Of a stretch of DNA of 29,178 nt, positions 459 to 20,137 are shown one piece after another (position 1 is the first letter of the stretch; the number at the start of each line of letters is the position of its first letter). The position numbers were made by a program, and so were the translations under genes. Source of the DNA: an uncultured archaeon. Its GTDB lineage: Archaea > Asgardarchaeota > Thorarchaeia > Thorarchaeales > Thorarchaeaceae. Location: assembly GCA_964631415.1 (NCBI GenBank), contig CAZVZC010000027.1, forward strand, positions 1 through 29,178, read 5' to 3'. The notes under the pieces are model-generated. The model did no database searches. It was not told where the DNA came from and worked only from the letters and a program-made list of their open reading frames with translations.

Positions 459-2561
459 TTGTCCCAGCTCTACAAGAAGTTTGTCGATGAACGGGCAGCA
501 GCTCTCATAGATGAAACAGGCCGCATACGTAACTGCACAGTCATCGCCCATGTCGATCATGGGAAGACGACGCTGACCGACTCATTGATTGCTTCTTCAG
601 GGCTGATGTCAAAGGAGGTCGCCGCCTCCGCCCGCCTCATGGACTATGATCCAATCGAGCAGCAGCGCGGCATCACCATCAAGGCGTCGGGCATCTCGCT
701 GATCCATGAGATGGCTGGCAAGGACTACTTGATTCATCTCATAGACACTCCCGGACATATCGACTTCTCGAGCCATGTGACGAGGGGTCTCCGGCTGACA
801 GATGGGGCGATCGTAGTCGTCGACATCATTGAGGGTATAATGGTCCAGACCGAAACCGTGACCAGACAGGCGATGGATGAACTGGTCAGACCGATGCTCT
901 TCATCAACAAGGTTGACAGACTGATAACGGAGAAGAAGCTCAAGGCCCGCAAGATTGCCGAGGTGATCAACAAGACTGTCCGCGAGTTCAACGCGATGCT
1001 CGGCAAGTATCTCGACGATAGCCGCCTTGAAACATGGCAGGTCTCTTTCAGCAGGGGCTCTCTCTGCATTGGCTCGGCACTAGACAAGTGGGGGGTCGAT
1101 ATTGATGTGCTTAAGCAGAAGTCCGGTGGTGACTCCGGGTCTGCAGCTCTCACCAATTCACTGATCGCGATTCTTGAGGACATCGTAGACTCGTACGCCA
1201 ATGAAAAGGAGAAGAGCTTGACACAGCGATACCCTGTAGACAGGGTGGTCCTCGACTCACTTGTGCGGACTGTGCCCAATCCAGCACATGCTCAGGAATA
1301 CAGAGTGCCTGTCTTCTGGAAGGGTAAGGTGGGCAGCATTGTTGGCGACTCGCTTCTTCACTGCAAGAAGGACGGGCCTTGTGTGCTTCTTGTTGGCGAC
1401 GTCCAGCCTGATCAGCACGCAGGGACTGTGGCTGCCGTGAGAGTATTCTCGGGGACCCTCCAACGAGCAAAGCCGCTGAGGAACCTGAGGACAGGCAGGT
1501 CTGCGAAGACCCTTCAGATCGGTCTCTTCATGTCCAAGACACGCATTCAGCTCCCATCGGTGCCTGCAGGCAATCTGGCCTTCATCACAGGATTGAACGA
1601 ACTCGCTGTGGGTGATACACTCGCAGATGAGGCGGCTGGTTCCATGCAGCCGATGATGGGACTCCATTATCCCACAGAGCCCGTGGTCACGTATTCGATT
1701 GAACCGAAAAGTCTGTCTGAACTCAGCACCATCCAGAGTCTCATTGAGCAGTATGTCACGAGCGACCCGGCTCTGGAGTTCAGAGCAGATCCGGATACTG
1801 GAGAGATGCTCTTGTCAGGGGCTGGCGAGCTGCACATTGAGGTGACAGTCGAGAAGCTGGCAAGACAGGGCATAAACGTTGCACTCGGTAAGCCGATGGT
1901 CCTACTCAGAGAGCAGATGACAATAAACGGACGGACGTGTGTAGGCGGCGGGGCTACGACAAGCAAGTTCTCTGTCAAAGCGGTTCTGACTCCAGACGCG
2001 GCTGCATTGCATGCCCTTGGGACGTTCATAGATACGGACCCAAGGTCTGCCTGCAACATAGTTGATTCCAGTACCACGATCAATCCTCTGAGCGATGAGG
2101 CGGAGATGATAAGGGAGGGGTTTCGGGTCATCACTCGAAACGGTCCCTTGGCAGGAGAGCGTCTGCGTAAGACGACATTCATTATCGAAACAGCTGAGCT
2201 GCGAACTGAGTCTGCGGAAACCTCATGGCGAGATGTGACTCAACCACTGCTACAGGCTGCAAGAGAGAGCTTCATGAGTGGGCATCCTCTTGTCCTCGAG
2301 CCTTGGGTCCGCCTTGAGATCAGCGCACCTGAGGAGCATATCGGGACCTTGACAGCGATTGTGGCGAAACGAAAGGGACGAGTCCTTCAGATTGACTCAG
2401 AGAGGACACTGTTCAGGGTCGAGGCAGAGATACCTGTGAGAGAGTCGTTTGGTCTGGCAAATGAGATCAGGACATCGACTTCGGGCTGGGCAACGTGGGG
2501 GGCAAAGGCGGGCGGATACAGAAGAGTCGGAGCGTCCAGTGGTGACGAGTCTTTCAGCTGA
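459..2561 (+). CDS. Divergent elongation factor 2 (EF-2/EF-G family) paralog, translational GTPase
   Basis: G1 AHVDHGKT, G2 RGITI, G3 DTPGH, G4 NKVD. Domain III GAGELHIEV and domain V LEP...RKGRV...FGLANEIR. No HRG diphthamide motif and no ribosomal-protein neighbours. TTG start. Confidence 0.88.
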   Translation: MSQLYKKFVDERAAALIDETGRIRNCTVIAHVDHGKTTLTDSLIASSGLMSKEVAASARLMDYDPIEQQRGITIKASGISLIHEMAGKDYLIHLIDTPGHIDFSSHVTRGLRLTDGAIVVVDIIEGIMVQTETVTRQAMDELVRPMLFINKVDRLITEKKLKARKIAEVINKTVREFNAMLGKYLDDSRLETWQVSFSRGSLCIGSALDKWGVDIDVLKQKSGGDSGSAALTNSLIAILEDIVDSYANEKEKSLTQRYPVDRVVLDSLVRTVPNPAHAQEYRVPVFWKGKVGSIVGDSLLHCKKDGPCVLLVGDVQPDQHAGTVAAVRVFSGTLQRAKPLRNLRTGRSAKTLQIGLFMSKTRIQLPSVPAGNLAFITGLNELAVGDTLADEAAGSMQPMMGLHYPTEPVVTYSIEPKSLSELSTIQSLIEQYVTSDPALEFRADPDTGEMLLSGAGELHIEVTVEKLARQGINVALGKPMVLLREQMTINGRTCVGGGATTSKFSVKAVLTPDAAALHALGTFIDTDPRSACNIVDSSTTINPLSDEAEMIREGFRVITRNGPLAGERLRKTTFIIETAELRTESAETSWRDVTQPLLQAARESFMSGHPLVLEPWVRLEISAPEEHIGTLTAIVAKRKGRVLQIDSERTLFRVEAEIPVRESFGLANEIRTSTSGWATWGAKAGGYRRVGASSGDESFS

Positions 2562-2562
2562 A

Positions 2563-4923
2563 CTACCTTCGGAAATAGAATCTCCTGTTCATCTCTTCTC
2601 CGAGGAAGGCCAGCACTCTTCTATCGACCATTGATGCAGAGTCCATCATTCGAAACGCCCTCGCAATGTTGGAGAACACAGCATTCATGTAGGGCTGTGC
2701 CTTAGCGAACTCTGCCTGTTCGACCATCTGCAGGTAGGAGTCGGTTATCTTCATCATGTTCAACCAGTCCTCAGTGAGAATGAGACCGAACTCGCCCTCA
2801 GGCGCTGCCGCCTCCAGAGTAGGGTACTTCGTGCGGTCTATGAGTGTTCCATACTGCTTCTCAAGCGCCGTCGCGAACCTCAGAACTACGGTTGACAGCG
2901 AGTCAGCGGTTGCCCGGATGAACTCGGATGCCTCGTCAAGAGTCGAGTCAGCCTTCTCAACAGCCCTCAGAGCAACAGCCGCTTGATATAGACCTGCTGC
3001 AAGTTCGGAGAAGTTCTTGTTCTCGTAGAACAGCCGGATTGTCTGTGCAAGGCGGACTTGACCTTCCCAGTACTGCGCCAGAAGAGGGTCTATGAGTCGA
3101 ATGAACTCGTTAGCTGGAAACACGACATGCAGCCCTGACTCAAGACTAACCGCATGCTGATTGATCTTCGCTGCAGCCAGTCCCATCATCACGCCTGCAG
3201 GGCCGGACAGTTCAGACTGGTCAGCTATAATCTTCTTCGACCGTCGTGACAGCTGTGACCACCCTGACGTGAGATATGGTACGACGAGGGAAGCACCGTT
3301 CACAAAGATATTGTCTTCAGGTGATCCTATGTCGGAGAGCATCCTGTCGACCTCTTCGAGCGTCCCAAGAAGCCGTGGAGGCAGTTGGGACCCATGTCGT
3401 AGACTGAACCAAGCGGCATTGTAAGTGGCGATAGCCGCCTCTGTATAAGCACGGGGGTCTGTTGGTAACAAGCGCATGTATCGGGCCAATGATTCGCGCA
3501 GCGACTCCTGAGCTACTGCGTCGGAACCATTCGACATCCGCAAAACGGACAAGGCAAGGCCAACTTGACTGCCGATGAGTTCGAGCTCTGTGACACCGCC
3601 TTTGGACAATAGACTCTCTCTGGTCTTGACAGCTCGCTTGAGTGCCTCCACACCGGTCGGCCAGAATTCGTCTGAATCACTGCACAGACACACCCAACCC
3701 AGAGTATGGTCACACCGAGATATCTCAAGACTGAAGTCCTGCCCGGAACTCCCGGCACCCTGAAGGACCTTCTTCGCCTGCTCCAGATATCCCACGGCGG
3801 CGGCCATGTTCTCGTGGTCACCCATCAAGCCATGCGCAAAGCCAAGCCCTGCAAGGCACTTGAACTCGTGGAGCACCTGGTCGGCATTCTTGTCCTTCAG
3901 AGCTGTGCTGACCTTGGACGCAGACTCCAGACGTTGAATGGCCTGTGGTACACCTTCTCGCCATCCCGTGGCCAGAATGCTTGACCCAATGTCGAGCAGC
4001 GCCACTCCGAGATTCTCCTCTCTCTCCTTGCCCGATGCTATAGCATCTCGGTATAGAGCAGCCGCCTTGTCAGCAAGTGACCGTGCGGTCTCATAGGGTA
4101 TTCCATCGTCTCTCGTGTCATTCACGCTCAGCTGCAGAGCGATCAGCGCAAGCTGTTTCACATCATTGTTAAGCCGCGCGCTCGACTCAAGTTCTTGGAG
4201 AATCTTACGAGACTCGCTGAACATCCCCAGCTCCGTTAGCGCACAAGCCTCATCGAATGCGACATCGTACATGAAGGGTTTCAGATCCATCTGGCGAGCG
4301 ACGACAAGCAGACGGTTGAGCAGCGCCTCTGCACATTCAAACAGCCCGGACTCCATGAAATCGAACGTCAGGTAGTGAATCTCGTGAAGAGCCAGCATAG
4401 TCGAGGGTTGATGAAAGCGGTTGTAGATCGCCTCGAGAGTGAGAAGGATCTCGTCTGTCAGGATTGTGGCAAGAGGTCTCAGATTGAGCCGCAGAGCAGA
4501 GCTCATTGATTGTAGGAGCTCGCCAAGTATGTCAATGAGCCGCGGAATGGCTTCTATGTCCGGCTGTAGTTCGGCCTCACCTCTTCTATAGCCGCTTGTA
4601 TATCGGGTGTCCAAGAGCACAAGCATCTCGGGCAGTTCGCGGTCTTGCTCGAACGACAGTCTGACAGTCAGTGCTGTGAGCTTTGTGCTGGCCAGTCCGG
4701 GCCTCCTGAGCAGGATCTCCTCAATGGCTCTCGCGACCTCATATGCGACATCACCAACGTCCTGCTCGGATGTCCTTGAGGCTAGAATCGCGGATAGCGC
4801 ATCATCTAGAGAGAATGATGCGCACAGGACATCCCTCAATGTAACAGGAAGCATCGAGTCCACTGGGGCCACTCCACTCAGGCGATAATGGTACACCTGT
4901 AGCCTTTGGTTAAAAGCTTTCAC
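2563..4923 (-). CDS. Large alpha-helical (TPR/solenoid-like) hypothetical protein
   Basis: About 786 aa, Ala/Leu-rich amphipathic helices with TPR-like patterns (LAGLGFAHGLMGDHENMAAAVGYLEQAKKV; TLGWVCL...EALKRAVK). Probable GTG start at 4923 overlaps the upstream TGA (GTGA); the ORF track extends it to 4950. Confidence 0.65.
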   Translation of the reverse strand: MKAFNQRLQVYHYRLSGVAPVDSMLPVTLRDVLCASFSLDDALSAILASRTSEQDVGDVAYEVARAIEEILLRRPGLASTKLTALTVRLSFEQDRELPEMLVLLDTRYTSGYRRGEAELQPDIEAIPRLIDILGELLQSMSSALRLNLRPLATILTDEILLTLEAIYNRFHQPSTMLALHEIHYLTFDFMESGLFECAEALLNRLLVVARQMDLKPFMYDVAFDEACALTELGMFSESRKILQELESSARLNNDVKQLALIALQLSVNDTRDDGIPYETARSLADKAAALYRDAIASGKEREENLGVALLDIGSSILATGWREGVPQAIQRLESASKVSTALKDKNADQVLHEFKCLAGLGFAHGLMGDHENMAAAVGYLEQAKKVLQGAGSSGQDFSLEISRCDHTLGWVCLCSDSDEFWPTGVEALKRAVKTRESLLSKGGVTELELIGSQVGLALSVLRMSNGSDAVAQESLRESLARYMRLLPTDPRAYTEAAIATYNAAWFSLRHGSQLPPRLLGTLEEVDRMLSDIGSPEDNIFVNGASLVVPYLTSGWSQLSRRSKKIIADQSELSGPAGVMMGLAAAKINQHAVSLESGLHVVFPANEFIRLIDPLLAQYWEGQVRLAQTIRLFYENKNFSELAAGLYQAAVALRAVEKADSTLDEASEFIRATADSLSTVVLRFATALEKQYGTLIDRTKYPTLEAAAPEGEFGLILTEDWLNMMKITDSYLQMVEQAEFAKAQPYMNAVFSNIARAFRMMDSASMVDRRVLAFLGEEMNRRFYFRR

Positions 4924-5636
4924 AGCTGCTCTACGACGAACTTCCTCCAAGACTTGGACGCCGGCGAGCCCCTCATCCGCTCCAGCTTGACATGGTAGAC
5001 TGGCTCAGGCCCCGTTTCATCGACCTTGAACTTGAGGACGGCGTCTGTAAGGTATGAGTAGGTGGCGTAGGTCTTCTCGTCATGGACTCCCTCCTCAAGC
5101 AGCAACATGATGCTATGAGACCCCTGGGTCACTCTTCCACTGAGCCGCTGCATAGACCGGGGCATTGTTTCTGCGTTGGAGTGCAGAATCAGCGTTGACA
5201 GGCTGTCCAAGGCCACGCGAGCACACACAAGGTTCTCAACTGCCTCTGAGAGGACAATACCTAGCTCACTGATGTCATCGATCTTAGAGAGTGAGTGAGC
5301 AGCAGTAGTCTTGGGCGCGCCCATCCTCTCTGAGTATGCGTCTATGAACTTGAACTGCCCAGCCTTTTCGCAGGCCTCAATTGGCCATCCGTGTCTGCTC
5401 ATGTCATTCCTTATGACACGGGGGGAAACGTCAGTTGTGATGAAGACTGCAGGGAACCCGAGGCTCAGTCCTTCGGCCAAGAAGGCCTCTGCATATGTGG
5501 TCTTGCCGGAACCCAGGGGGCCAACGAGCATGTAAGAGAGCTGAGTCAGTTGTCCAAAGTCGACCATATCGCCCATCATTGGACGGGCCTTCACAGGTTT
5601 CCCAATGCAGCTGTCCGAATTGGGTTTCTCGCCCAT
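4920..5636 (-). CDS. Single-domain KaiC/RAD55-family ATPase (CII-like, catalytic EE replaced by TD)
   Basis: Walker A GPLGSGKT, Walker B VALDSLS, SYLTD segment, RMRGS Arg-finger region. GGAGG SD upstream of ATG 5636. Confidence 0.85.
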   Translation of the reverse strand: MGEKPNSDSCIGKPVKARPMMGDMVDFGQLTQLSYMLVGPLGSGKTTYAEAFLAEGLSLGFPAVFITTDVSPRVIRNDMSRHGWPIEACEKAGQFKFIDAYSERMGAPKTTAAHSLSKIDDISELGIVLSEAVENLVCARVALDSLSTLILHSNAETMPRSMQRLSGRVTQGSHSIMLLLEEGVHDEKTYATYSYLTDAVLKFKVDETGPEPVYHVKLERMRGSPASKSWRKFVVEQL

Positions 5637-5663
5637 AGCAGACGCCTCCGTCTTGCCTTCTCA

Positions 5664-6410
5664 TCAATGCCCAGGAGATATCTCGCCAGGCCAGACTCTT
5701 ATTCCCTCATCAGTGATTCTCATGGAGTGAATCCTAGAGCTGTGCTTCGATCCACGAAGCTTCAAGACCTCAATAGACCGCGACCGGGATGTATCGCTGA
5801 TTTTCTCGTTGTATAGCACAATGACACCTGAGGCAAGAAATGCTTCAATGTCGAACACTCCCAGTCCTGTGTCCTGTGCGGGTATTTCACTCGTCAGAAG
5901 GAGCGTGCAGCCAGCCCGTGTGATAGCGGCACAGAGCTTGAAGAACTCCTCCCGGAGGATGTCGCGGCTCCTGAACTTGTACGCTAGGATGGAGAGAGTG
6001 TCTATGACCACTCGCTTCGCACCAAGATTCTTGACATGATTCAGTATGATTGCCTCGAGACCGGAAAGGTCGAAGCTCGGGTACTCGCCAATCGTGACAG
6101 GCGTGACCTCCTTGGAGGGTGACAGATCCACAATGGCAAGCTTCCCTGCCTGTTCGAGCTTGGCAAGGTCCATTCCAAACCTGAGCATGTTTCTCTTTAT
6201 CAAGCGGGGAGGCTCCTCTAGGGTGACAAGGACGCCGGCCTCATTGTACAACGTGACACCCTTGTACAGAAACTGATTCGCAAGGATGCTCTTTCCTGTC
6301 CCGGCCTTTCCTGCAACGAGGATAGTGTCACCCCTTGGAAAGCCGCCTTCTATCAGCTCATCCAGACCGGGGATTCCGGTCTTGACGCGTTCTATGGTGT
6401 AGTCGCTCAT
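5664..6410 (-). CDS. Single-domain KaiC-family ATPase (CI-like)
   Basis: RVKTGIPGLDELIEGG, Walker A GKAGTGKS, TLEE, VVIDT, TLLLTSE, KLRGSKH. Confidence 0.92.
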   Translation of the reverse strand: MSDYTIERVKTGIPGLDELIEGGFPRGDTILVAGKAGTGKSILANQFLYKGVTLYNEAGVLVTLEEPPRLIKRNMLRFGMDLAKLEQAGKLAIVDLSPSKEVTPVTIGEYPSFDLSGLEAIILNHVKNLGAKRVVIDTLSILAYKFRSRDILREEFFKLCAAITRAGCTLLLTSEIPAQDTGLGVFDIEAFLASGVIVLYNEKISDTSRSRSIEVLKLRGSKHSSRIHSMRITDEGIRVWPGEISPGH

Positions 6411-6796
6411 TCTCCTGCACCTCTCTTTTTGTAGACCTTCGCACTCAGGATCATCTTCAGGAGCATCTCTGGTTCGGGTATACCCGTGATTGAAACGCCC
6501 CCTATCATCACCGTCGGCAGTGCGAAGATCCCGTACTCCTCTGCTGCCTCGGGGTTCTCAGTCACATTGATGACAGTGAATTTGAATATTGAGGATTCAA
6601 AGTCCTCGAGTGTTTCACGAATCACTTCCTCAGCACGGGGACAGAAAGCGCACGAATCGGACTTAAAGAGGACAATCTCGATGACTGATGACTCACCGAT
6701 CTCCTCTTCTTGGTCTTCAGTGCGTTCTGTCTTGTCTGACAAGCGCGTGTGCTCCTGGTCCGAGGAAATGACAAAGACACTCCTGACATCTGTCAC
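6407..6796 (-). CDS. Thioredoxin-fold protein with CAFC motif, KaiB-like
   Basis: CxxC (CAFC-P), INVTENPEAAEEYGIFALPT with the cis-Pro motif, acidic N-terminal extension. Stop overlaps the KaiC start (ATGA). Confidence 0.82.
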   Translation of the reverse strand: MTDVRSVFVISSDQEHTRLSDKTERTEDQEEEIGESSVIEIVLFKSDSCAFCPRAEEVIRETLEDFESSIFKFTVINVTENPEAAEEYGIFALPTVMIGGVSITGIPEPEMLLKMILSAKVYKKRGAGE

Positions 6797-6835
6797 TTGA
6801 AGCTTTTGACGACGCTATTCTGACAACGCGCAGTT

Positions 6836-7231
6836 CTATTGACCTTTGTAAGACAAGAGCCGCCTGATTCTCGTGGCCGCCTTGCCCAACGCCCTTGAGT
6901 GGTATCGGACGTTGCGGTCCATGACAGCTGCCAGCAAGATGGGCTGGCTCTTGCCCGATGATATCTTCTTAAAGACGGCCTTTCCCAGACTGCAGCGGAC
7001 GGATATGTCCCTGATCTCTCCGAGACCGAGCTCCTTGCGCACCCTGTCCACGGACGAAGTTATGTAGCCTGACATTGCCGCCACGATGTCTTTGTCTGTG
7101 CCAGGTGAAGTGGCGAAAGCCATGGTGAAGCCATCATCCCGAGCAAGGACTGAGGCTTTGTACTTGCCTTCCTTGTTCATCGCTTCCAAGATGCCTGTAA
7201 GCTCCCTGTAGTCAGGCCGTTCCATAGACAT
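6836..7231 (-). CDS. Roadblock/LC7 (MglB-like) domain protein
   Basis: ASVLARDDGFTMA...DIVAAMSG...ELGLGE...LAAV pattern, about 131 aa. GGAG SD before ATG 7231. Confidence 0.85.
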   Translation of the reverse strand: MSMERPDYRELTGILEAMNKEGKYKASVLARDDGFTMAFATSPGTDKDIVAAMSGYITSSVDRVRKELGLGEIRDISVRCSLGKAVFKKISSGKSQPILLAAVMDRNVRYHSRALGKAATRIRRLLSYKGQ

Positions 7232-7271
7232 AATCTCCGATCTGCGCTGTAACCTGACTGTCACTTACATG

Positions 7272-7286
7272 CCTATTAAACAATAA
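7272..7286 (-). promoter_or_regulatory. Putative TATA box (TTTAAT) for the roadblock-Trx-KaiC cluster
   Basis: Minus-strand TATTGTTTAATAG, an AT-rich patch in the divergent intergenic region, about 45 nt upstream of the start. Confidence 0.4.
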
Positions 7287-7428
7287 CGTACATTCCCCAC
7301 ACCACCTGATATGACTCATGCTGTGTCAAGCACAGGGCCTAGCCCGCCAATCCCTACAGAAGAGGCTCATCGGCAGTATGGTTTTTAGGAGGACTGGCCC
7401 ACATCGTCTTGTTCAGGATGTGGAGCGG

Positions 7429-7989
7429 ATGCCTGCCGAGTATCGGTTCAAGATTGTGATGCTAGGAGATGGAGCAGTTGGAAAGACTGCTCTGACTCTC
7501 CGGTTCACTCAGAACCATTTCGACAGTGACTACAAGAGGACTATCGGCAGTGACTTCGCTGTGAAACGAATGCACGTGCCCCAGAGGGACGCCAACTGCA
7601 CCATTCAGGTATGGGACCTCGCAGGACAGCCGCGGTTCGAGATAGTACGGCAGTCATTCTATCGAGGCTCGCGGGGCGGGCTCTTGGTGTTCGACGTGAC
7701 GCGACGCAGGACGTTCCTTAACCTTGAACAGTGGAAAGAGGAGGCGTTCAAGAACACAGGCAGGCCTATCCCGCTTGTTGTCGTGGCAAACAAGGTAGAT
7801 CTTGCAGAGAGCAGGGTTGTCACAACTGAGGAGGGAAAGGAGTACGCTGACAAGAACAAGTTTCTCTATGTTGAGTCAAGCGCACTCTCGGGAGAAAACG
7901 TAGAATGTGCCTACGTGAGCCTGTGCACGATGATGATTGACGCACCGAAGATCAGCTCCCCGGGCGAAACGTCAAGTCCAACCACCTGA
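7429..7989 (+). CDS. Rab-like small GTPase (Ras superfamily)
   Basis: FKIVMLGDGAVGKT, TIGSDF, WDLAGQPRF, FYRGS, NKVD, ESSAL. Probable start at ATG 7429 (MPAEY). No terminal prenylation motif. Confidence 0.93.
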   Translation: MPAEYRFKIVMLGDGAVGKTALTLRFTQNHFDSDYKRTIGSDFAVKRMHVPQRDANCTIQVWDLAGQPRFEIVRQSFYRGSRGGLLVFDVTRRRTFLNLEQWKEEAFKNTGRPIPLVVVANKVDLAESRVVTTEEGKEYADKNKFLYVESSALSGENVECAYVSLCTMMIDAPKISSPGETSSPTT

Positions 7990-8006: not shown

Positions 8007-9137
8007 CTAGGTCTGTACTCTCGTGGTCCCTTTCAGTAGACCTAGAGCCTTCTTACATTGCCAGACCGCGTAGAAAAGTCGCTTCTCACGAAGCGTTTCT
8101 TCATCGTAGGCCGAGCGAAGCTGTTCGAACTTCTTGATGAGTTCCTCTCTGTGGGCCAGACCAGCATCAGCTTCAATCTCTTTTAGAAGCGACTGGAACG
8201 GAGCTAGGGTGGCACCAAAGTCAGACGCCTCCCAACGAATGATAGCTCCCGTACCATCAGAGGTCAGAAAGGCGCTCTCGTTAGGAAACCACTCGACCCC
8301 ATCGATCTCACTCGCAGTAGACCCCCGTCCTTCCACCGTGTATCTCTCGGTGGACCATACGAGTATCTCCTTATCGCTCGAGCCTGTTGCCAAGTACTTC
8401 CCGTCGGTACTGAATGCTACAGAACGCACTTCTCCAGTGTGACCGGGCAGCGTTCTATCGACCTTGAGTGATTGACCGCTCGTGTCCCAGAGAATCACAT
8501 TGCGGTCAGATGAACCAGAAGCGAGTCTGGCGCCATCGAGCGAGAAACGGAGAGTGTGTACAGCAGTCCTGTGTTCAGTGAACTTGTCTATCATCTTGCC
8601 AGTGTCCGGATTCCACACGCAAATCGTCGAGTCGACTCCCCCTGAAACAATCCTGTCGCCTCTTGGATCCCATTGACATGTTTGGACATATAGCGAGTGC
8701 CCCCTCAGCTGTTGCTGCTTGGAGCGGTTGTTGACATCCCACACTATCAAAGTGGTGTCGCCACTGCTGGAAACAAGCCGATCCCCGGACGGAGAGAAAG
8801 ATAGGGAGAGCACAGGATATGTGTGACCCTCCAGCTTGGCCATCTGAGTGCCGGACCTAATGTCCCAGAGCTTGATGACTCGGTCGACACCGCCAGTGGC
8901 CAGAATGTCGCCCTTGGGGCTGAAAGCAATGGAGGTACACAGAAACCCGTCCTCCATTTTCTGCATCTCCTCACAGTTGCGTGCATCAAAGAGGCGTATC
9001 GTGCGGTCCTGCATGGCCGCGGCAATCATTCTCCCAACCTTGTTCATTGCGAACCGCCGGGTGATCTCTCCTCCCTGCGAGGCAGCAGGTCTTAGTGTTC
9101 GCGGTCTCAGAAACAGTGGCGCTTCTTCTTGGCCCAT
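8007..9137 (-). CDS. WD40-repeat beta-propeller protein with C-terminal helical extension
   Basis: About seven repeats of the GH...(S/T)xxD..I..WD type (KLWD, IVWD, CVWN, ILWD, LVWS, IRWE). Start is ATG 9137 or GTG 9146. Confidence 0.92.
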   Translation of the reverse strand: MGQEEAPLFLRPRTLRPAASQGGEITRRFAMNKVGRMIAAAMQDRTIRLFDARNCEEMQKMEDGFLCTSIAFSPKGDILATGGVDRVIKLWDIRSGTQMAKLEGHTYPVLSLSFSPSGDRLVSSSGDTTLIVWDVNNRSKQQQLRGHSLYVQTCQWDPRGDRIVSGGVDSTICVWNPDTGKMIDKFTEHRTAVHTLRFSLDGARLASGSSDRNVILWDTSGQSLKVDRTLPGHTGEVRSVAFSTDGKYLATGSSDKEILVWSTERYTVEGRGSTASEIDGVEWFPNESAFLTSDGTGAIIRWEASDFGATLAPFQSLLKEIEADAGLAHREELIKKFEQLRSAYDEETLREKRLFYAVWQCKKALGLLKGTTRVQT

Positions 9138-9252
9138 CGTTCTCACTCACTAGACTTCGGAGGACATGAAGCACCTCGGACTGACGCTAAAAGCATTGTG
9201 AATATAGTACAAACAATCGGGATTCGACCGTGAGCTCAAGGCAGCTGACGAC

Positions 9253-9828
9253 CTAGGCCATGCCGCCTGCCTCAAGAATCTTGATTGCCAGTTCTAAGAA
9301 AGCCGCTTCCACGTTCTCGCCCGTCTTTGCAGAGGTCTCGAGGAAGGAACAATGTACGCCAGTCCGAGTGATGGCCTCTGCGTACTTCTGACCCTCCTGA
9401 GTGGAAACAATCGTCTGTCGCATCACAGGGTTGTCCTTGAACTGCTCTCTGAGGTCTGTCTTGTTACCTATGAGGACAATCGGGATCTTCTTTCCCGAGT
9501 TCGTCCAGCATTCGTTCAACCAGTTGGGCAGGTTGTCAAAGGATGCCCGTTCTACCGTTGAGTAGACTGCAAGTGCGCCCTGAGCGCCCCTGTAGAAGGT
9601 GGACCTCACACTCTTGAAGTGTTCCTGACCGGCCAAGTCCCATATCTGTATGCTGACGTCGTGTCCACCCTCCAGATGCATCTTCTTTACCGCGAAGTCT
9701 GCGCCTATGGTGATCATGTACTGGGCGCGAAAACCCTCACCCATGTAGACCTTTCTTAGTGTGGTCTTTCCAACCGAACCGTCGCCCATGAGGACGACCT
9801 TGAACAACGCATTTACGATAGTGACCAC
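9253..9828 (-). CDS. Rab-like small GTPase with an insertion after G4
   Basis: FKVVLMGDGSVGKT, TIGADF, WDLAGQEHF, FYRGA, NKTD, ETSAK. Start uncertain (GTG 9828 used; the ORF-track extension to 9975 looks non-coding). Confidence 0.92.
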   Translation of the reverse strand: MVTIVNALFKVVLMGDGSVGKTTLRKVYMGEGFRAQYMITIGADFAVKKMHLEGGHDVSIQIWDLAGQEHFKSVRSTFYRGAQGALAVYSTVERASFDNLPNWLNECWTNSGKKIPIVLIGNKTDLREQFKDNPVMRQTIVSTQEGQKYAEAITRTGVHCSFLETSAKTGENVEAAFLELAIKILEAGGMA

Positions 9829-10112
9829 CTCACGGAATCTTTCGCATTGGTGTCTGCTGGTGAGGTCCAGAGAGCTGTCTTGTGGACACTCTTGGGAACG
9901 GAGTATCTTCGAGTTATTAAAGTTCGTTGTGGCGGGCTGTTGAAACGGGTTCTGTGGCATCTTTACTTTCGGCAATCAGTCTGCCTCTACACTGTCTCCT
10001 TGGATAGACACTCACATCTCGCAAAGGCCAGAATCATCCAATGTGGCAGTGTACGCTGCTAGTCCAGAGACCGTTTCCCAGTCATATGGTCTCGTGAATC
10101 GAGGCTGATAGC

Positions 10113-14227: not shown

Positions 14228-15004
14228 TCACTTCTTGCTGCGGCGCCACTCCTCGAAGATGGCCATGTACATACATTCTCGAGGACTGATCCACATCTCG
14301 GCCGAGTCGAAAGACTTGTCGACAAACTCAACCGGTGCTCCGCGTACGAGAGCCGCCGGCACAGACTCATCAGCCTCACCGATGACAAGCTCACAGGCGG
14401 AAGCCAAATTGTCCGCGAGGCCACGGCGCTTGATCTTCAGTACATTGCCAAAGAGGTCCTTCTTGCCACGGTCATCGCCAACTGGTACGAAGCCTGCCAC
14501 GCCCAGGGCAAGCCCCACGTTGCCCAGTCGAAGTGGTTGCGTGCGGCTGTCAATCACCATGGTGCCTATTGTCTTGCCGAGGCGCTGCTTCACTTGATCC
14601 CTGAGCCGGACTGCACTCGCCCTTGGATCTGCCGGGAGGAGACACGCGTGGCCTGGTGGAACATTAGACTTGTCGACCCCTGCGTTGGCCATGAGTGTAT
14701 TGTTCTTGATTGTGAGCAGGACATGTTGGATGCCGCCGAGTATCTCATCGGACTCACGAATGACAAGCTCAACGACCTCGGGAATCATATCATACTTGAT
14801 CGCTAGCTTCTTGGCTTGAGCAGACGGTTTCACTTCTGAGAGCTTTACGATCCGTCCCTCAGTCGTTGCGAGTGGGGTCTCCGCAGCCACTAAGATGTCG
14901 TTGTCTTGGATGCTGTATCCCGTGTGCGAGAGTCCATCGAACAAGACATCTAGGAAGTCGTCGTTCGGAGTTATCGTTCGTGTCTTTATTGGGATTACTA
15001 GCAA
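14228..15004 (-). CDS. cofE: Coenzyme F420-0:L-glutamate ligase family
   Basis: DILVAAET...EGR, ANAGVDKSN, LLPADP, DSRTQPLRLG, DLFG..L, ADNLAS...GEADE. Probable TTG start at 15004 with a GAGGT SD. Confidence 0.85.
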   Translation of the reverse strand: MLVIPIKTRTITPNDDFLDVLFDGLSHTGYSIQDNDILVAAETPLATTEGRIVKLSEVKPSAQAKKLAIKYDMIPEVVELVIRESDEILGGIQHVLLTIKNNTLMANAGVDKSNVPPGHACLLPADPRASAVRLRDQVKQRLGKTIGTMVIDSRTQPLRLGNVGLALGVAGFVPVGDDRGKKDLFGNVLKIKRRGLADNLASACELVIGEADESVPAALVRGAPVEFVDKSFDSAEMWISPRECMYMAIFEEWRRSKK

Positions 15005-15100
15005 TTCGTCCGACCTCGCACGAGCAGAGCTTGGATACAAGATAAAGCCACCCAAACAACCGCGGGTGGCCGAAGGAGCGTCCCACTGACGCAATACGAC

Positions 15101-16546
15101 TCAAACGGTTTCTGACCTGTGACTTGTACGACCGCCCCGCTCTTCCTTCTGCAGCTTCATGCGTGCTCCCATGATACATGAATCGCTCTTGCGTCCGCCC
15201 ATGGGGTTCTCTCTCGTTCCCATCGAGTTCATGCACCTTGCTGCTACAGCCGCGCCCATTGCTAGGCCGTCCTCGACGAACACCGTCTGATGAGAAACGC
15301 TCCAACGGGAACCATCTCTTGTCTGCAGCCCATTCACGATCATGTTTGGTTTGGCTCCAGTGATGATCGCCCTGCCGGTCAGGCCAAGCGAAGTGTTACT
15401 CAGAATGAGTCCACGCTCTTCAGCCACGCCGAGTATCCTCTGCAGGGTGTCGAACTGTACCTGGTCTATGACACCCATCATCAACTCAGTATCACCAGTT
15501 TCGACGATTCCCGCTCCAACACGCTCTATCTCTCTGATCGCCGAGCCGTTCGAACCCGCATCCACGCCTATGAGCAGCACTCCAGATTCCTCGGCGGCGT
15601 CGGGGTTCACAGGGACAGTCCCGAATCGTCTGGCAGAACGTGGCACGACCTCGACACGGATCTGCTTGTGTACCTGCTCTACCCATGCCGGATCTACTTG
15701 GATACGACGGCGACTGGGATGAGTCGTCAGGTCAAGAACACAGCCTGCAGGTCCGATGGCCTCTGCTCCACCTCTGGCAAGAGCATCTGGAATAGCCCCT
15801 GCAAGCCCAGCGAAGGAACCAATGGTTCTGGCATACGGATAACTGTCATCAGCGATCCTTCCAGCAAGTGTAGTGCCGAAGTCCAGCACCATGACAGGGT
15901 TTCTGAAGTCTATGCCGCTGCCTTTGACAGCGCCTTTCAGACCGGCTGTGACTAGCTCCCCTTCCATCTCATTGGCCACGACCTCGGTGTTAGATGGCGG
16001 AAGACAGCTCGCCACTGCTCCATCGAAGTAGACCTTTCGCAGCCAGCTGAACTGCCGTATATCAGCAGGCAGATTCTCGGGGGCAATCGACGCAGTCATC
16101 TTGCTCGGGGGGACTCCAGCAGCAAGACAGCCGTCCGCCAGCGCCCTCACCATCTCCCCGACCTCAGAGGGCTGTGCAAATCCGGCTGTCACACCTGTGG
16201 ACCGCACGACAAAGTGCAGGTCGCTATCAAGACTCAGCCGGGCCTTTGACAGTACAGATGTCAGTATTGCGGAAACGAGCTCCGAAACCGACTGACGAGT
16301 CAGTTCAACACCTGTGATGGTCCTCCCGAAGATCTGTTCTCCCTTCCCAGGAGGCCTCACGTCACGTGTGAATCTCACTTCCTTCGCAATCTCGAATATC
16401 TCTGCAGTCTTCAGGTTCGTGGACGCAATGATGCATTTGGTAGTTGTATTGCCCAGCTCCACAGAGGCCACAGTGTAGAATGTACCGGTCCTGAGTGAGC
16501 TCACCCCTATGTTCCTCGGCCTGATCACTTTGGCCTTCATGGACAT
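15101..16546 (-). CDS. Methanogenesis marker protein 14 (DUF2114-like), ASKHA-type ATPase fold
   Basis: VASVELGNTTTKCI, DLHFVVRSTGVTAGF, NEMEGEL, DFRNP...DFGTTLAGRI, GLAGAIPD, FVEDGLAMGAAVAARCMNS.GT..NP.GG. Lies next to mtrH, as in methanogens. Confidence 0.85.
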   Translation of the reverse strand: MSMKAKVIRPRNIGVSSLRTGTFYTVASVELGNTTTKCIIASTNLKTAEIFEIAKEVRFTRDVRPPGKGEQIFGRTITGVELTRQSVSELVSAILTSVLSKARLSLDSDLHFVVRSTGVTAGFAQPSEVGEMVRALADGCLAAGVPPSKMTASIAPENLPADIRQFSWLRKVYFDGAVASCLPPSNTEVVANEMEGELVTAGLKGAVKGSGIDFRNPVMVLDFGTTLAGRIADDSYPYARTIGSFAGLAGAIPDALARGGAEAIGPAGCVLDLTTHPSRRRIQVDPAWVEQVHKQIRVEVVPRSARRFGTVPVNPDAAEESGVLLIGVDAGSNGSAIREIERVGAGIVETGDTELMMGVIDQVQFDTLQRILGVAEERGLILSNTSLGLTGRAIITGAKPNMIVNGLQTRDGSRWSVSHQTVFVEDGLAMGAAVAARCMNSMGTRENPMGGRKSDSCIMGARMKLQKEERGGRTSHRSETV

Positions 16547-16561
16547 CGTCTTGTCACCTTC

Positions 16562-17497
16562 TCACAAGAGCCTACGGAAAGGATGGCTCTCGGACGGCTC
16601 GATGCCAGACTCAACACTGGCAGACTCTGCTGCGAACACATCGGCCATCGCTGCGACTGGGAAGACGGTCTTGGCATTACTGATTGGTCCATAGAGCACG
16701 AAGTTCGCACCCATCATCTGAACGATAAGACTCGATGCAGCATCACAAGTGCGGTAGGCATCTGGATTGGTTTTCTTGTACTTACGGAGCCAAGACCAAG
16801 AGCTTGGCGCATTGTGGACCCCTGATCCCGTTGGCAGGCCGTAGACAGCCTTTGCCACGAAAGTGAATGCTGCAGCGGTGCCTGCACCAGCACCCATCGC
16901 AGTGGTCGCAGTATCAATCAGGGGCTTTGTGATTCCGAGCTCTTCACTCAGCTTCAAGAGACCTTTGTCAAACCCAGGCACGCCCCGTTCAAGCACTGCC
17001 CGCTTGCCTGCGATGGACGAGTCGTGGGGGTTGAAAGCCAGAATGATAGCGCACTCATGCCTGATCTCTCTCAGGGCGTTAAGCTCTCCGTCCGAGGCGG
17101 AGATGTTGATTGAGTTGTAGATCGCCTTGTCGAGCAGGCCAGACTCTTCGGCGTGTTTCAGACCGGCAATCCTGACATCAGGCACTGTTGAGTCAATCAG
17201 AAACGGCGCATCCGTGATGTCGGTCACGAAGTCAATGTATCGGCACACAGCCTCCTCAGACTCTGAGAACAGTTGAACAAGGGCAGGATTCCCTGTTAGG
17301 TCTGCCATCTCATCTTGAGCCTTGATCAGAGTTTCAGCGGCTTTCCTGTCAAAGAGACCTTTCTTCGCGTCTTGCACTATGTCATGTCCTGTGTAGAAGA
17401 TCGTGCCTGCCAACACCGTGGGAATCTCGCCGGGTGTTCCTCCGATCCTGATGCCGCCAACGTTATGAATCACTTGCTCTTTCTCGAATACGAACAA
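16562..17497 (-). CDS. mtrH: Tetrahydromethanopterin S-methyltransferase subunit H family (canonical-like)
   Basis: MFVFEKEQ, PTVLAGTIFY..H, FLIDST, IYNSIN, GSGVHNAPSSW, VLYGPI. TTG start. Confidence 0.92.
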   Translation of the reverse strand: MFVFEKEQVIHNVGGIRIGGTPGEIPTVLAGTIFYTGHDIVQDAKKGLFDRKAAETLIKAQDEMADLTGNPALVQLFSESEEAVCRYIDFVTDITDAPFLIDSTVPDVRIAGLKHAEESGLLDKAIYNSINISASDGELNALREIRHECAIILAFNPHDSSIAGKRAVLERGVPGFDKGLLKLSEELGITKPLIDTATTAMGAGAGTAAAFTFVAKAVYGLPTGSGVHNAPSSWSWLRKYKKTNPDAYRTCDAASSLIVQMMGANFVLYGPISNAKTVFPVAAMADVFAAESASVESGIEPSESHPFRRLL

Positions 17498-17500
17498 AGC

Positions 17501-18193
17501 TCACAACTCCTGTCCTACAAGCGTGGTTCCCGTCTCGTCGCTCTTCATGACAACCCCGACAGTTGTTGGATGAGCGGAAACCACAGCGACCAAGTTCATC
17601 CTCGACACCAGTGAACTTGCAGGGTCGAGGGAAATGCCAAACTCTGGCAACAGAGCAATGGCCGCACCCATAGTCCTTGAACTCGCCTTGCCGGGTCTAG
17701 CCTTGAAGTCAACCCACATGGGATCAGCAGGGTATGGTCCCGGGTCTCTCGAAACGAGTCCATCTACCGCACGCGCAATCTTATCGGAATCCGTCACGTC
17801 CACCATGTTGACCAGCTGAACCTGACTTCGAAACCTCTCGACTGCCTCGATTGGCACGTTCTCAACATATGGTATTGCCCCCTCAGCCTTGAGTATCCTT
17901 CTGGTGCTGGGATCAATGCCGCCCTCATGAAGGCATTTCACCGAGGCTCCCGTCTTGTGTCCGGGAATCTCGGGGCCCGCGAGTATGAAAAACCTGATAC
18001 AGGGATTCGAAACCACGTTCACTATCATGCGCTCTATGCCTATGTTCTCTGTCTTGCATGTGCCTATTATGGCGTAGTCGGCAGGGACCTCTATCTTCTT
18101 CCCGAGAGTGCATATCGCCACACACGAAGTGGGGTTCTTCACCTCGAAGTCACCAGGAATGGGTGGCCAGTTCCTGTCGTCACTCTTACGCAC
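17501..18193 (-). CDS. mtrA: MtrA-family corrinoid protein, soluble, with a non-canonical C-terminal extension
   Basis: WPPIPGDF, VAICTL, GTCKTENIGIE, SNPCIRF, EIPGHKTG (His ligand), GAIPYVEN, ERFRSQV. No clear C-terminal TM anchor. Confidence 0.9.
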   Translation of the reverse strand: MRKSDDRNWPPIPGDFEVKNPTSCVAICTLGKKIEVPADYAIIGTCKTENIGIERMIVNVVSNPCIRFFILAGPEIPGHKTGASVKCLHEGGIDPSTRRILKAEGAIPYVENVPIEAVERFRSQVQLVNMVDVTDSDKIARAVDGLVSRDPGPYPADPMWVDFKARPGKASSRTMGAAIALLPEFGISLDPASSLVSRMNLVAVVSAHPTTVGVVMKSDETGTTLVGQEL

Positions 18194-18204
18194 TGTCGCA
18201 CCAC

Positions 18205-19122
18205 CTACTCAAACGACTTCGGTTCGAATATGGGCGTGGAAGCCCCAATTGCCTGCTGAGCCTCAGCAACTGCGGCTGCCATCGCATTTGCTATGAGTGA
18301 CACTGCTGTGAAGACATGCTTTGATCGAGCCATCGATCCGTACATGATGCAGTCTGTGGCAAATAGCTGTGCCGCAATAGTCGACGCCACTACGGCTGAG
18401 ATTTGTGTGGTTTCATCGTCCAATCCCGGCTGCTTGATGAACTTCCAAGCAGAGGGAGCGTTGTGAGGACCAAGGCATGTCGGCAGGCCCAGTTCCGACT
18501 TTATGGCCAGCATGGTTCTGTACTCCAAGCCGTAACCAGCACCCACAGGCATGGTGGCTGGGTCCACGACAATCTTCTCCATACCCATGGACTTCGCTTC
18601 TGAGATCATGGCCTTGATTGTTTCCATGCGATCAGCCAGACCTGTTGCTCTCGGAGACCATCCAAGGACGACCGCCATTCTGATGGGGCTGTTCCGAAGA
18701 AGCGCCTTCTCATCCTCCTTCATAGACAGGTTGATTGAGTTGTAGATAGCCCTGCCGCCGAGCCCACCCTGTTCACAGAACTGTATGGCGCGTCTTCTTG
18801 CATCTGCGCTGGTTGACTCGAACATGAAGGGACCCTCGAAGTTGTCCACTAGCCAAGACAGATGACGCACCATGGCCTCGGGAGTCCGGCCAAATGCTTG
18901 GATAATAAGAGGGTGACCCGTTTTATCCACCATCATGTTCGCAGTATCAATCCACTCTCTGGCCATCCGCTCGTCGAAGCTGCCCTCCTTCGGGTTCTTC
19001 ACTATTGGCTGAGTCTGGAAGAATAGACCGCCTATGAGCACAGTCGGGTTCTGCCCTGGCTGACCACCGATTGTCACGCCGCCGAAATCAAACGCTTGTT
19101 GCTCCTTCTTGAACACAAACAT
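18205..19122 (-). CDS. mtrH: Second, divergent MtrH-family pterin methyltransferase
   Basis: MFVFKKEQ, GGQPGQNPTVL, IYNSIN, HNAPSAW. Substitutions GGLFF, FMFEST and MYGSM relative to the canonical motifs. Confidence 0.85.
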   Translation of the reverse strand: MFVFKKEQQAFDFGGVTIGGQPGQNPTVLIGGLFFQTQPIVKNPKEGSFDERMAREWIDTANMMVDKTGHPLIIQAFGRTPEAMVRHLSWLVDNFEGPFMFESTSADARRRAIQFCEQGGLGGRAIYNSINLSMKEDEKALLRNSPIRMAVVLGWSPRATGLADRMETIKAMISEAKSMGMEKIVVDPATMPVGAGYGLEYRTMLAIKSELGLPTCLGPHNAPSAWKFIKQPGLDDETTQISAVVASTIAAQLFATDCIMYGSMARSKHVFTAVSLIANAMAAAVAEAQQAIGASTPIFEPKSFE

Positions 19123-19134
19123 AGTACCTCAACC

Positions 19135-20079
19135 TCATTTCGGTCGCGGGTAGAGTCCCGTGGCTCTCACGAGCTCAGGGATACTCTCTTCCCAGCCTAT
19201 TGCCATGATGTGGATGCCGCTGATTCCGCGAATGTCCCTGACTCTCCTGATTGTTTCCGCAGCAATCTTGAACCCTTCACTGCGAACAGTCTCTCTCTTC
19301 TCGTCACCCTTGAGACCATCGCCAGCCTGTTCCAGTCGTTCTACGAAGCTCTTCGGAATCTTGATGCCCGGGATTCGTTCGTTCATGAAGGTGGCCATTC
19401 TGGGTCCTTTGAGCGGTATCAGTCCTGCCAGTACCTTGACACCGAGCGGTTCGATTTGTTCCATGAACTCCTCCAGCCTGCTCGTGTCGTAGATGGCTTG
19501 AGTCTGGAAGAACTGTGCCCCTGAATCACGTTTCTTCTCAACACGCCAGACCTGTAGCTCCATCGGGTCGGCATTCGGGTTGAGAGTAGCACCGAGATAG
19601 AATGCCGGGACACCCTCAATCTCATCCCCAGCCAGATCCCGCCCTGTCATGAGATGACTCGCAAGCTGCAGAGCTTGGATGGAGTCAAGGTCATAGACCA
19701 TCTTCGCTTGGGGATGCGACCCTAGGATTGTGTGGTCGCCCGTGATGAACAGCACGTTCCGTATGCCAAGAGCATAAGCCCCATACAGTTCGCTCTCGAA
19801 GAGAATCCTGTTCCTGTCCCTCGCAGACATCTGCATTACGGGCTCAGCACCTGCTTGGATCACATAGCGGGCGCATACCATGCTGCTCATCGTTGGAATT
19901 CCACGGACGTTGTCCGTGATGTTGATTGCATCGCAGTAGTCTTTCACAAGGTTCGTTCTATCAAGGACGAGACTATAGTCTGCTCCATGCGGAGGACCCA
20001 CTTCGCCAGTGACTGTGAAATGACCACTCTCAAGCATCCGCTTGAGCCCGGTTTCAGGCAGACCTTGACTGTGTTTCAA
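19135..20079 (-). CDS. metF: Methylenetetrahydrofolate reductase
   Basis: GEVGPP, AINITD, RDRNR, LFITGD, K...GAQFFQTQ, GIHIMA. TTG start with GAGGT SD. Confidence 0.92.
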   Translation of the reverse strand: MKHSQGLPETGLKRMLESGHFTVTGEVGPPHGADYSLVLDRTNLVKDYCDAINITDNVRGIPTMSSMVCARYVIQAGAEPVMQMSARDRNRILFESELYGAYALGIRNVLFITGDHTILGSHPQAKMVYDLDSIQALQLASHLMTGRDLAGDEIEGVPAFYLGATLNPNADPMELQVWRVEKKRDSGAQFFQTQAIYDTSRLEEFMEQIEPLGVKVLAGLIPLKGPRMATFMNERIPGIKIPKSFVERLEQAGDGLKGDEKRETVRSEGFKIAAETIRRVRDIRGISGIHIMAIGWEESIPELVRATGLYPRPK

Positions 20080-20137
20080 ACTAACCTCGAATGTCGCTCG
20101 TCAGCAGGACCACATATCTCCTTTGGTCCTTCACAAT

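Follow-up and report, generated by a model that had tools for sequence, protein, structure and literature searches.

We analysed a 29,178-nt stretch of an uncultured archaeal genome (contig CAZVZC010000027.1 of assembly GCA_964631415.1; hereafter the window), which belongs to a Thorarchaeota metagenome-assembled genome of 2.16 Mb and 85% completeness and which encodes an operon with a thioredoxin (Trx) and two KaiC-family ATPases (K1 and K2). The open reading frame (ORF) listing contained a run of five co-directional minus-strand genes for a Roadblock-like protein, Trx, K1, K2 and a TPR-like solenoid protein, with a Ras-like GTPase gene (GTPase1) transcribed divergently from the Roadblock gene (Table 1). 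An earlier note had proposed a KaiBC-like timer or redox switch at 4920-6796, in which a KaiB-like thioredoxin would accompany a KaiC split into separate CI-like and CII-like genes. The three ORFs were present in the order Trx, K1 and K2 with the coordinates given there, as were the ATGA overlap of the first two, the 27-nt gap between K1 and K2, and the quoted motifs (TLEE, FDLSGL, AKRVVID and EAFLASGVIVLYN in K1, SYLTD in K2). The boundary of the unit had to be redrawn, since it covers no less than 2563-7264, to which the divergent GTPase gene at 7318-7989 is added, and continues from K2 into the TPR gene through a GTGA overlap at 4920-4923.

The order and spacing of the Roadblock, Trx, K1, K2 and TPR genes were identical in about 60 of about 75 Thorarchaeota species loci, namely in all of those on a sufficiently long contig. 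An arrangement shared by every such locus is not due to chance, and the three genes of the earlier note, which had suggested a synteny survey, were co-conserved in all of these loci. The Thorarchaeota loci followed a constant plan, EF2-like(-) / TPR, K2, K1, Trx, Roadblock / GTPase1, and the overlap of the Trx stop codon with the K1 start codon indicates translational coupling of these two genes. At the locus of G037, a genome of the sister family, the wider synteny was broken and the GTPase, Roadblock, Trx, K1 and K2 genes were still found together, now all co-directional and with the GTPase gene directly upstream of the Roadblock gene. This locus contained neither the TPR gene, which is conserved in the Thorarchaeaceae, nor the WD40 and second GTPase (GTPase2) genes that lie further along in the window.

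Judged by its sequence, K1 is a CI-type single-domain KaiC ATPase with intact catalytic motifs. The Walker A motif (G34-S41), the glutamate pair E65-E66, the Walker B aspartate D137 and the arginine finger R219 were all invariant in 16 orthologues, and identity across the Thorarchaeaceae was 81–97%. Against the KaiC structures in PDB, K1 scored 175 bits with the CI domain and 73 bits with the CII domain; its score with the NCBIfam circ_KaiC model was 154.6, for a cutoff of 546. K1 and K2 are encoded by separate single-domain genes, so the CI-CII fusion that characterizes cyanobacterial KaiC is not found here. Residues 97-118 of K1 fall in a CI-specific loop that CII lacks, where CI could be aligned through and the alignment of CII needed 12 gap positions. 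In KaiC, the CI B-loop is the docking place of fold-switched KaiB and of the Trx-like domain of SasA, and mutagenesis has shown that F122 and D123 matter (bioRxiv 10.1101/2020.06.17.158394). K1 carries an invariant counterpart of this pair, F113-D114. The same genome encodes a second K1-like KaiC (G000:C1:81051-81809), which scored 177 bits with the K1 profile and has no Trx gene next to it; a Trx-like ORF (C1:72614-72871) lies ∼8 kb upstream of it, and the 8-kb spacing was observed again in several other Thorarchaeota genomes (G016, G018, G028, G036 and G131).

The upstream gene encodes a small protein for which the orthologue alignment makes the TTG codon at 6742 (∼111 aa) a likelier start than the GTG at 6796, most orthologues beginning ∼18 codons later. 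The first ∼37 residues form a variable, acidic stretch, and the coding sequence of the folded domain begins at 6685. In the Pfam search, the protein matched Thioredoxin_3 (PF13192) with 37.4 bits (cutoff 24.8) and also Thioredoxin and Glutaredoxin, while both KaiB models stayed under their cutoffs (PF07689, 24.0 against 27; TIGR02654, 19.4 against 145). The best NCBIfam model was that of the MJ0307 family, TIGR00411, with 54.9 and therefore under the equivalog cutoff of 92.75. The active-site cysteines C49 and C52 were conserved in 21 of 21 orthologues, and the cis-proline P94 was invariant among the 16–21 orthologues compared. When the orthologue profile was run against PDB, the MJ0307 thioredoxin of Methanocaldococcus jannaschii (1FO5) ranked highest (68 bits, E = 4.5e-18), followed by protein disulfide oxidoreductases (PDOs; 41–59 bits), classical thioredoxins (24–37 bits) and KaiB (∼25 bits). 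The AF2 model (predicted local distance difference test score, pLDDT, of 90.6) showed one canonical beta-alpha-beta-alpha-beta-beta-alpha thioredoxin fold, and its top 50 Foldseek matches were all Trx- or Grx-like; KaiB was sought among these 50 and not found. An hhalign comparison with a KaiB from an archaeal context gave a probability of 62% over 44 columns. On these profile and motif comparisons, Trx is a genuine redox thioredoxin of the MJ0307 type and not a member of the KaiB family, so that the label KaiB-like cannot be kept as a family assignment, and its likeness to KaiB is the general one that small thioredoxins of this type bear to the Trx-like half of that protein. MJ0307, the best solved relative, shares the minimal fold, the CxxC motif and the cis-proline; the window protein differs in its sub-equivalog score, in its variable acidic extension, in being dedicated to a KaiC operon and in the predicted use of its active-site face for protein docking. 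A conserved cysteine was sought in the K1 and K2 orthologues and none was found. With both ATPases devoid of such a residue, reduction of K1 or K2 was ruled out as the main role of Trx.

We then examined the predicted complex of K1 (19-row alignment) with the Trx domain (residues 38-129), using paired rows and three controls. The models reached an ipSAE of 0.74, 0.74 and 0.70, and the best control 0.00; the runs shared at least 99% of contacts with a partner pLDDT of at least 84. Among solved complexes, 58 of 80 reached the docking mark, as did 2 of 110 mismatched pairs; this calibration is only rough because the alignments are shallow (19 rows). The modelled interface is formed by K1 residues 94-124 (and 146) with Trx residues F44, S46, S48-F51, R54-A55, V78-T79, P82-E83, A85-T95, M97, G99-E108, M111 and M115, and the tightest contacts are predicted between K1 F113-L118 and Trx A92-L93-P94. 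Of the 12 invariant residues of Trx, 11 lie in this modelled interface. The active-site face of Trx is therefore predicted in silico to dock on the B-loop of K1, in line with the interface between these two proteins for which the earlier note had suggested a structural model.

K2 is best regarded, from its profile scores, clade support and motifs rather than from the tree topology test described below, which was not decisive, as not CII-like and as a member of a separate old KaiC family that lacks the catalytic Glu-Glu pair. The Walker A, Walker B and arginine finger motifs were invariant, and the position of the glutamate pair was occupied by T67-T-D69-V70-S-P-R73 in every orthologue; K2 very likely still binds ATP, as far as these motifs tell. 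Its best solved relative was PH0284 (PDB 2DR3, 76 bits), which retains the Glu-Glu pair, unlike K2, and within KaiC the CI domain scored 37 bits and the CII domain 16 bits. The earlier note had matched the SYLTD motif of K2 to the CII phospho-site. The alignment was correct, with S194-Y195-L-T-D198 falling on S431-T432-I-T-D435, but the serine was kept only within the Thorarchaeaceae, G037 having S-F and DPANN relatives E-Y or N-Y. Since only D198 was conserved family-wide, a phospho-site of the STITD kind was set aside and the resemblance treated as coincidental.

K2 orthologues (64–97% identity) were found only in the genomes of Thorarchaeota species and, with 49% identity, in one genome of the sister family. 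In an exhaustive profile search they formed one cluster at 50% identity with a score of 364 bits, and the next matches, at 152 bits, were single-domain KaiC-like proteins. The nearest relatives outside Thorarchaeota, P0247 and P0248 (152 and 143 bits), were both inspected and both adjoin V4R genes; such V4R-linked relatives have V4R and RIO kinase genes as neighbours and neither Trx nor K1. In an Asbonarchaeaceae genome (L109, 6954-8618) and a Nanohaloarchaeon (L110, 6832-8621), a K2-family KaiC was paired divergently with a K1-like KaiC and had T-x-D in place of the two glutamates together with a shared EEGVHDEK motif, a pairing which suggests that the two-KaiC arrangement predates the Asgard lineage.

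For the phylogeny, we used the Thorarchaeota K1 and K2 orthologues, the paralogues of the same genome, the CI and CII halves of 15–21 double-domain KaiCs, representatives of the K2 search and K1-like genes of a further 20 Asgard genomes; cyanobacterial KaiC, PH0186 and PH0284 were outside the tree. The Asgard genes were sampled by genome search, as the close-homologue search with K1 gave Thorarchaeota orthologues only. In the careful 96-row tree (LG+G4), CI, Thorarchaeota K1 and four Asgard K1-like genes formed one clade (ultrafast bootstrap, UFBoot, 100 / Shimodaira-Hasegawa-like approximate likelihood ratio test, SH-aLRT, 95), a placement that could be biased toward CI by the choice of double-domain KaiCs, which were bacterial and metagenomic best matches to K1. 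CII formed its own clade (100/99), and K2 fell outside both, within a 38-row clade of single-domain KaiC-like proteins (100/99). With the K1 profile and the K2 profile alike, the CI half scored above the CII half in 15 of 15 double-domain KaiCs. The approximately unbiased (AU) test did not reject a tree with K2 and CII held together (p = 0.25); the trees resolve the deep placement of CII poorly, which explains the lack of significance. Of the split into CI and CII genes that the earlier note had supposed, the CI part was supported by K1, which joined CI in the tree, and the CII part was not supported by K2, in view of its scores, its separate clade and the replacement of EE by D-V. In a later tree, the K1-like gene of G104, picked beforehand for its upstream Trx-fold gene, fell in the clade of CI and K1 (SH-aLRT 95), and all three second KaiCs from other Asgard families were placed in the K2 clade (SH-aLRT 100).

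Pairs of a CI-like and a K2-family KaiC gene, usually accompanied by genes for a Trx-fold protein, a small GTPase and a Roadblock protein, were found in three of the four other Asgard families examined (Table 1). The K1-like genes of all four families (G048/G058, G060, G045 and G104) lay within the clade of CI and K1, and each except that of G045 had a Trx-fold gene directly upstream, whereas the remaining 16 best K1 homologues that we inspected from other Asgard genomes were placed outside this CI clade and had no Trx gene beside them. Small GTPases flank the homologous modules in G048, G058 and G045 or, in G104, are fused to them. The six-gene operon of G104 encodes, in order, a Cys-less Trx-fold protein that was sub-threshold for both Thioredoxin_3 and KaiB, a K1-like protein, a protein of 380 aa in which a degenerate KaiC domain is joined to an Arf/Ras-like GTPase, a Roadblock protein, a K2-like protein (DUF7504) and a protein of TRAPP/V4R-like type. 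The fusion provides evidence of the Rosetta-stone type for a link between KaiC and GTPase. Likeness to Roadblock could not be shown for the ORFs of 152 aa that precede Trx in G048 and G058. The kaiB-kaiC gene order named in the earlier note has a counterpart in the Trx-fold gene directly upstream of K1. Directly upstream of the nearest double-domain KaiCs we found either KaiB, which in L137 overlaps by 4 nt, or, in L135, a KaiB-like domain that stayed under the threshold.

Table 1. Coordinates of features at the Trx-KaiC locus and composition of related Asgard loci
Feature	Position	Strand	Basis and remarks
TPR-like solenoid, 786 aa, last operon gene	2563..4923	-	All-alpha; GTG start at 4923 overlapping K2 stop
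K2, divergent KaiC-family protein, 238 aa	4920..5636	-	PF06745 96.3 bits (cutoff 26.6); also passes DUF7504
K1, single-domain KaiC, 248 aa	5664..6410	-	PF06745 233.7 bits (cutoff 26.6)
K1 B-loop-like segment, residues 94-124	6039..6131	-	Invariant P111-S-F113-D114-L-S116; predicted Trx docking site
ATGA overlap, Trx stop/K1 start	6407..6410	-	Seen in sequence; ATGA or gap of at most ∼10 nt in 16 orthologous loci examined
Trx, MJ0307/Thioredoxin_3 type	6407..6796	-	C49-A-F-C52 and cis-Pro P94; Pfam, NCBIfam, orthologue profile and fold matches
Roadblock/LC7-like, first operon gene	6836..7264	-	Probable start ATG 7231; TTTAATA box ∼7275-7281
Ras/Rab-like small GTPase (GTPase1)	7318..7989	+	Pfam Ras 168 bits; probable start ATG 7429
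WD40 propeller	8007-9146	-	Pfam; Thorarchaeaceae-only neighbour
Second Ras-like GTPase (GTPase2)	9253-9975	-	Pfam; Thorarchaeaceae-only neighbour
Loci in G048 and G058			Unknown - Trx (CGFC) - K1-like - RagA/Arf-like GTPase; TPR protein alongside
Locus in G060			Trx-like - Trx (CAFC) - K1-like - K2-like (DUF7504)
Locus in G045			Roadblock divergent from Ras GTPase - K1-like - KaiC with lost Walker A
Locus in G104 (L138, G104:C6:72500-78005)	1043-5160	-	Six-gene operon

The Roadblock orthologues were 55–100% identical and occupied the same position in all Thorarchaeota loci, with GTPase1 adjoining. A Ras-family GTPase gene beside a Roadblock-like gene, here and also in G037, G045 and G104, resembles the MglA-MglB pair and the Rag-Roadblock pairs of Asgard archaea and eukaryotes, but the present pair is embedded in, or in G104 fused to, KaiC-family ATPases, and we know of no description of such an arrangement. 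No Pfam family was matched in the search with the TPR protein, which has TPR-like atlas features and an AF2 model with 34 helices (pLDDT 87.6); Foldseek returned generic solenoids only (Ctr9, Ski3 and LGN), pointing to no specific function, and by fold the protein could be a scaffold. Single conserved cysteines were found in the Roadblock protein (19 of 21 orthologues), GTPase1 (20 of 21) and the TPR protein (17 of 20).

Taken together, we lean, with some reserve, towards a conserved Asgard signalling operon with a KaiC hub and a thioredoxin docked in the manner of KaiB, and not a split clock protein. K1 would be the active ATPase, to go by its intact motifs, and presumably hexameric by analogy with PH0284 and KaiC. 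In the model, the CxxC motif and cis-proline loop of Trx would dock on the exposed B-loop near F113/D114, the same site and mode that fold-switched KaiB and the Trx-like domain of SasA use on KaiC CI. As no cysteine is conserved in either ATPase, the CxxC motif is likelier to serve as a redox-sensitive binding switch than as a reductase acting on them. Thioredoxin and ASK1, in which oxidation alters the binding affinity, offer a resemblance for such redox gating. K2 may serve K1 as a regulator or adaptor and provide the link to the small-GTPase/Roadblock switch, a role suggested by the fusion of a degenerate KaiC domain with a small GTPase in a different Asgard lineage, and the TPR solenoid, as modelled, might act as a scaffold or output platform. 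The net function would be to couple the nucleotide state of K1 and the redox state of the cell to the Ras-like GTPase switch.

The operon has parallels in known systems. As here, the kaiBC pairs known from cyanobacteria, proteobacteria and some archaea begin with a small Trx-fold gene, which overlaps the gene that directly follows it and whose N-terminal or sole domain is of the CI type, and K1 further resembles the partner of KaiB and SasA in clustering with CI, in its F-D B-loop and in the docking predicted there. It differs in that K1 is a single-domain protein without fused CII, its partner is a CxxC thioredoxin of the MJ0307 type, there is no KaiA, and the second ATPase comes from another KaiC family without catalytic glutamates and is linked to a small GTPase, a Roadblock protein and a TPR protein. 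A further parallel is with archaeal KaiC-like ATPases, which Makarova, Galperin and Koonin reportedly described in 2017 as signal transduction hubs with inactivated KaiC partners. In such hubs, an active KaiC, a degenerate paralogue and putative input and output proteins share one operon, as here, and K2 also passes the threshold of DUF7504, a KaiC-derived family. PMC5847659 cites Makarova et al. (2017) for archaeal KaiC hubs. A search of the searchable literature, which did not extend to Makarova 2017, returned no paper that connects KaiC of Asgard archaea with a CxxC thioredoxin, Roadblock or a small GTPase. Measured against that literature, the partner set (CxxC thioredoxin, Ras/Rag-like GTPase, Roadblock and TPR proteins) and the position of K1 in the CI clade would be new among known KaiC hubs.

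Several observations weigh against this interpretation. A region of more than 20 kb is wholly syntenic within the Thorarchaeaceae, and conservation at the family level alone is therefore weak evidence of linkage. The docking score may be a memory, on the part of the model, of the solved KaiB-CI and SasA-CI structures, and because those complexes have been solved, the score shows likeness to them and not binding. The F-D pair within a B-loop-like segment is also seen in K1-like paralogues without a neighbouring Trx gene, such as C1:81051 of the same genome. The Trx-fold protein of G104 has lost both cysteines, so that redox chemistry is not essential to the module everywhere. Finally, the Roadblock assignment in the window rests on a Robl_LC7 match of 21.8 bits, under the Pfam cutoff of 23; the protein at the homologous position in G104 scored 42.5 bits.

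The timer that the earlier note had envisaged would be a KaiA-less KaiBC-type hourglass, with K1 and K2 in stacked rings, autophosphorylation of K2 at the SY site and Trx in the role of KaiB. It draws on the CI-clade position and B-loop of K1, on the upstream Trx-fold gene and its predicted docking, on the alignment of K2 S194/D198 with S431/D435 and on the AU test, which left K2 with CII unrejected. However, K2 is without the glutamate pair that CII uses for phosphotransfer, it scored closer to CI than to CII throughout and fell in another clade with high support, its serine is unconserved beyond the Thorarchaeaceae with a tyrosine as the T432 equivalent, and Trx, as modelled, has the stable fold of a canonical CxxC thioredoxin with no sign of KaiB membership. 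A timing role is speculation, and we regard a timer of this design as very unlikely. Trx could instead be an ordinary disulfide reductase, merely co-expressed with another component or maintaining it, that does not bind K1 specifically, with the KaiC proteins working independently. Its canonical fold and intact active site, its best relatives among general archaeal thioredoxins and PDOs, and the single conserved cysteines of the Roadblock, GTPase1 and TPR proteins as potential targets would all fit, but such a role leaves unaccounted for the conserved tight translational coupling of Trx and K1, the recurrence of Trx beside CI-like KaiC genes in at least four further Asgard genomes with rearranged surroundings, the Cys-less copy that holds the same position in G104 and the predicted complex, which passed where the controls scored zero; the genome also has other Trx-like genes elsewhere for housekeeping. 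We consider it unlikely.

KaiC-family proteins serve elsewhere as accessory ATPases of cellular machines, in archaella or pili (ArlH/FlaH), in GvpD-like turnover or in repair (RadA paralogues), and K1 and K2 gave weak matches to FlaH/ArlH and RadA models. The FlaH/ArlH scores were nevertheless far under the cutoffs (K1, 66 against 194 and 47.1 against 215; K2 lower, 17.5 against 215), no arl genes were found in the window, and the conserved neighbourhood held no archaellum, pilus, gas-vesicle or repair genes, its recurring partners being the GTPase, Roadblock, TPR and Trx genes. A role of this kind appears extremely improbable.

A bolder proposal extends the KaiC-hub interpretation. Trx-K1 would be homologous to kaiB-kaiC and represent its ancestral form, a redox-active CxxC thioredoxin bound at the B-loop of a single-domain, CI-type KaiC; KaiB would have arisen from this thioredoxin by loss of the cysteines, and together with the degenerate KaiC it would regulate Ras/Rag-like GTPases and Roadblock proteins according to ATP and redox state. 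The Cys-less Trx-fold protein of G104 can be cited as an example of cysteine loss in place, and we nevertheless hold this proposal to be rather unlikely. To our knowledge, no regulators are known for the many eukaryote-like small GTPases and Roadblock proteins of Asgard archaea, and such a regulator would, if the proposal is true, amount to a previously unrecognised upstream layer of control for GTPase systems that eukaryotes inherited. For the origin of KaiB, a CxxC thioredoxin in the genomic and predicted structural position of KaiB, with a Cys-less variant elsewhere, offers a testable series from thioredoxin to KaiB. Adjacency of KaiC-family ATPases to small GTPases across five Asgard families, with one fusion, points to KaiC-type ATPases as GTPase partners. 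Even on the ordinary reading alone, the operon would be a well-defined archaeal KaiC hub that spans the lineage and brings to this class redox as a new input and a GTPase as a new output.

Some further loci were recorded in the course of these comparisons. At L137 (4720-11536), a chemotaxis (che) operon includes a canonical kaiB-kaiC pair with a 94-aa KaiB, and a V4R gene with two single-domain KaiC-like genes, one of the DUF7504/DUF7090 type, is found 3 kb off. In one other Asgard family, small Trx-like ORFs of 87–93 aa have a single in-frame TGA that could encode selenocysteine (CxxU/UxxC), for example G078:C205:8319-8555, G137:C182:17068-17304 and G098:C35:3861-4112.

Within the window, it is uncertain whether the WD40 and GTPase2 genes (8007..9975) belong to the module, as their spacing varies and they are missing from the G037 locus. 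PADLOC gave no meaningful matches to anti-phage defence systems for the window, and a defence reading was dropped on this account; the WD40 protein had a 78-bit PADLOC match to 'HEAT-ARM_XIII', which probably reflects generic WD40 similarity and not defence. On the other side of the operon, a plus-strand gene (438-2561) encodes a paralogue of the EF-2/EF-G GTPase family (EF-Tu GTP-binding domain, EFG_III and EFG_C). It converges on the TPR gene, the two stop codons being 1 nt apart, and is syntenic in all Thorarchaeota loci. A tight minus-strand cluster at 14228-20100 comprises genes for F420-0:gamma-glutamyl ligase, DUF2114 (methanogenesis marker 14), MtrH, MtrA, a second MtrH and MTHFR.

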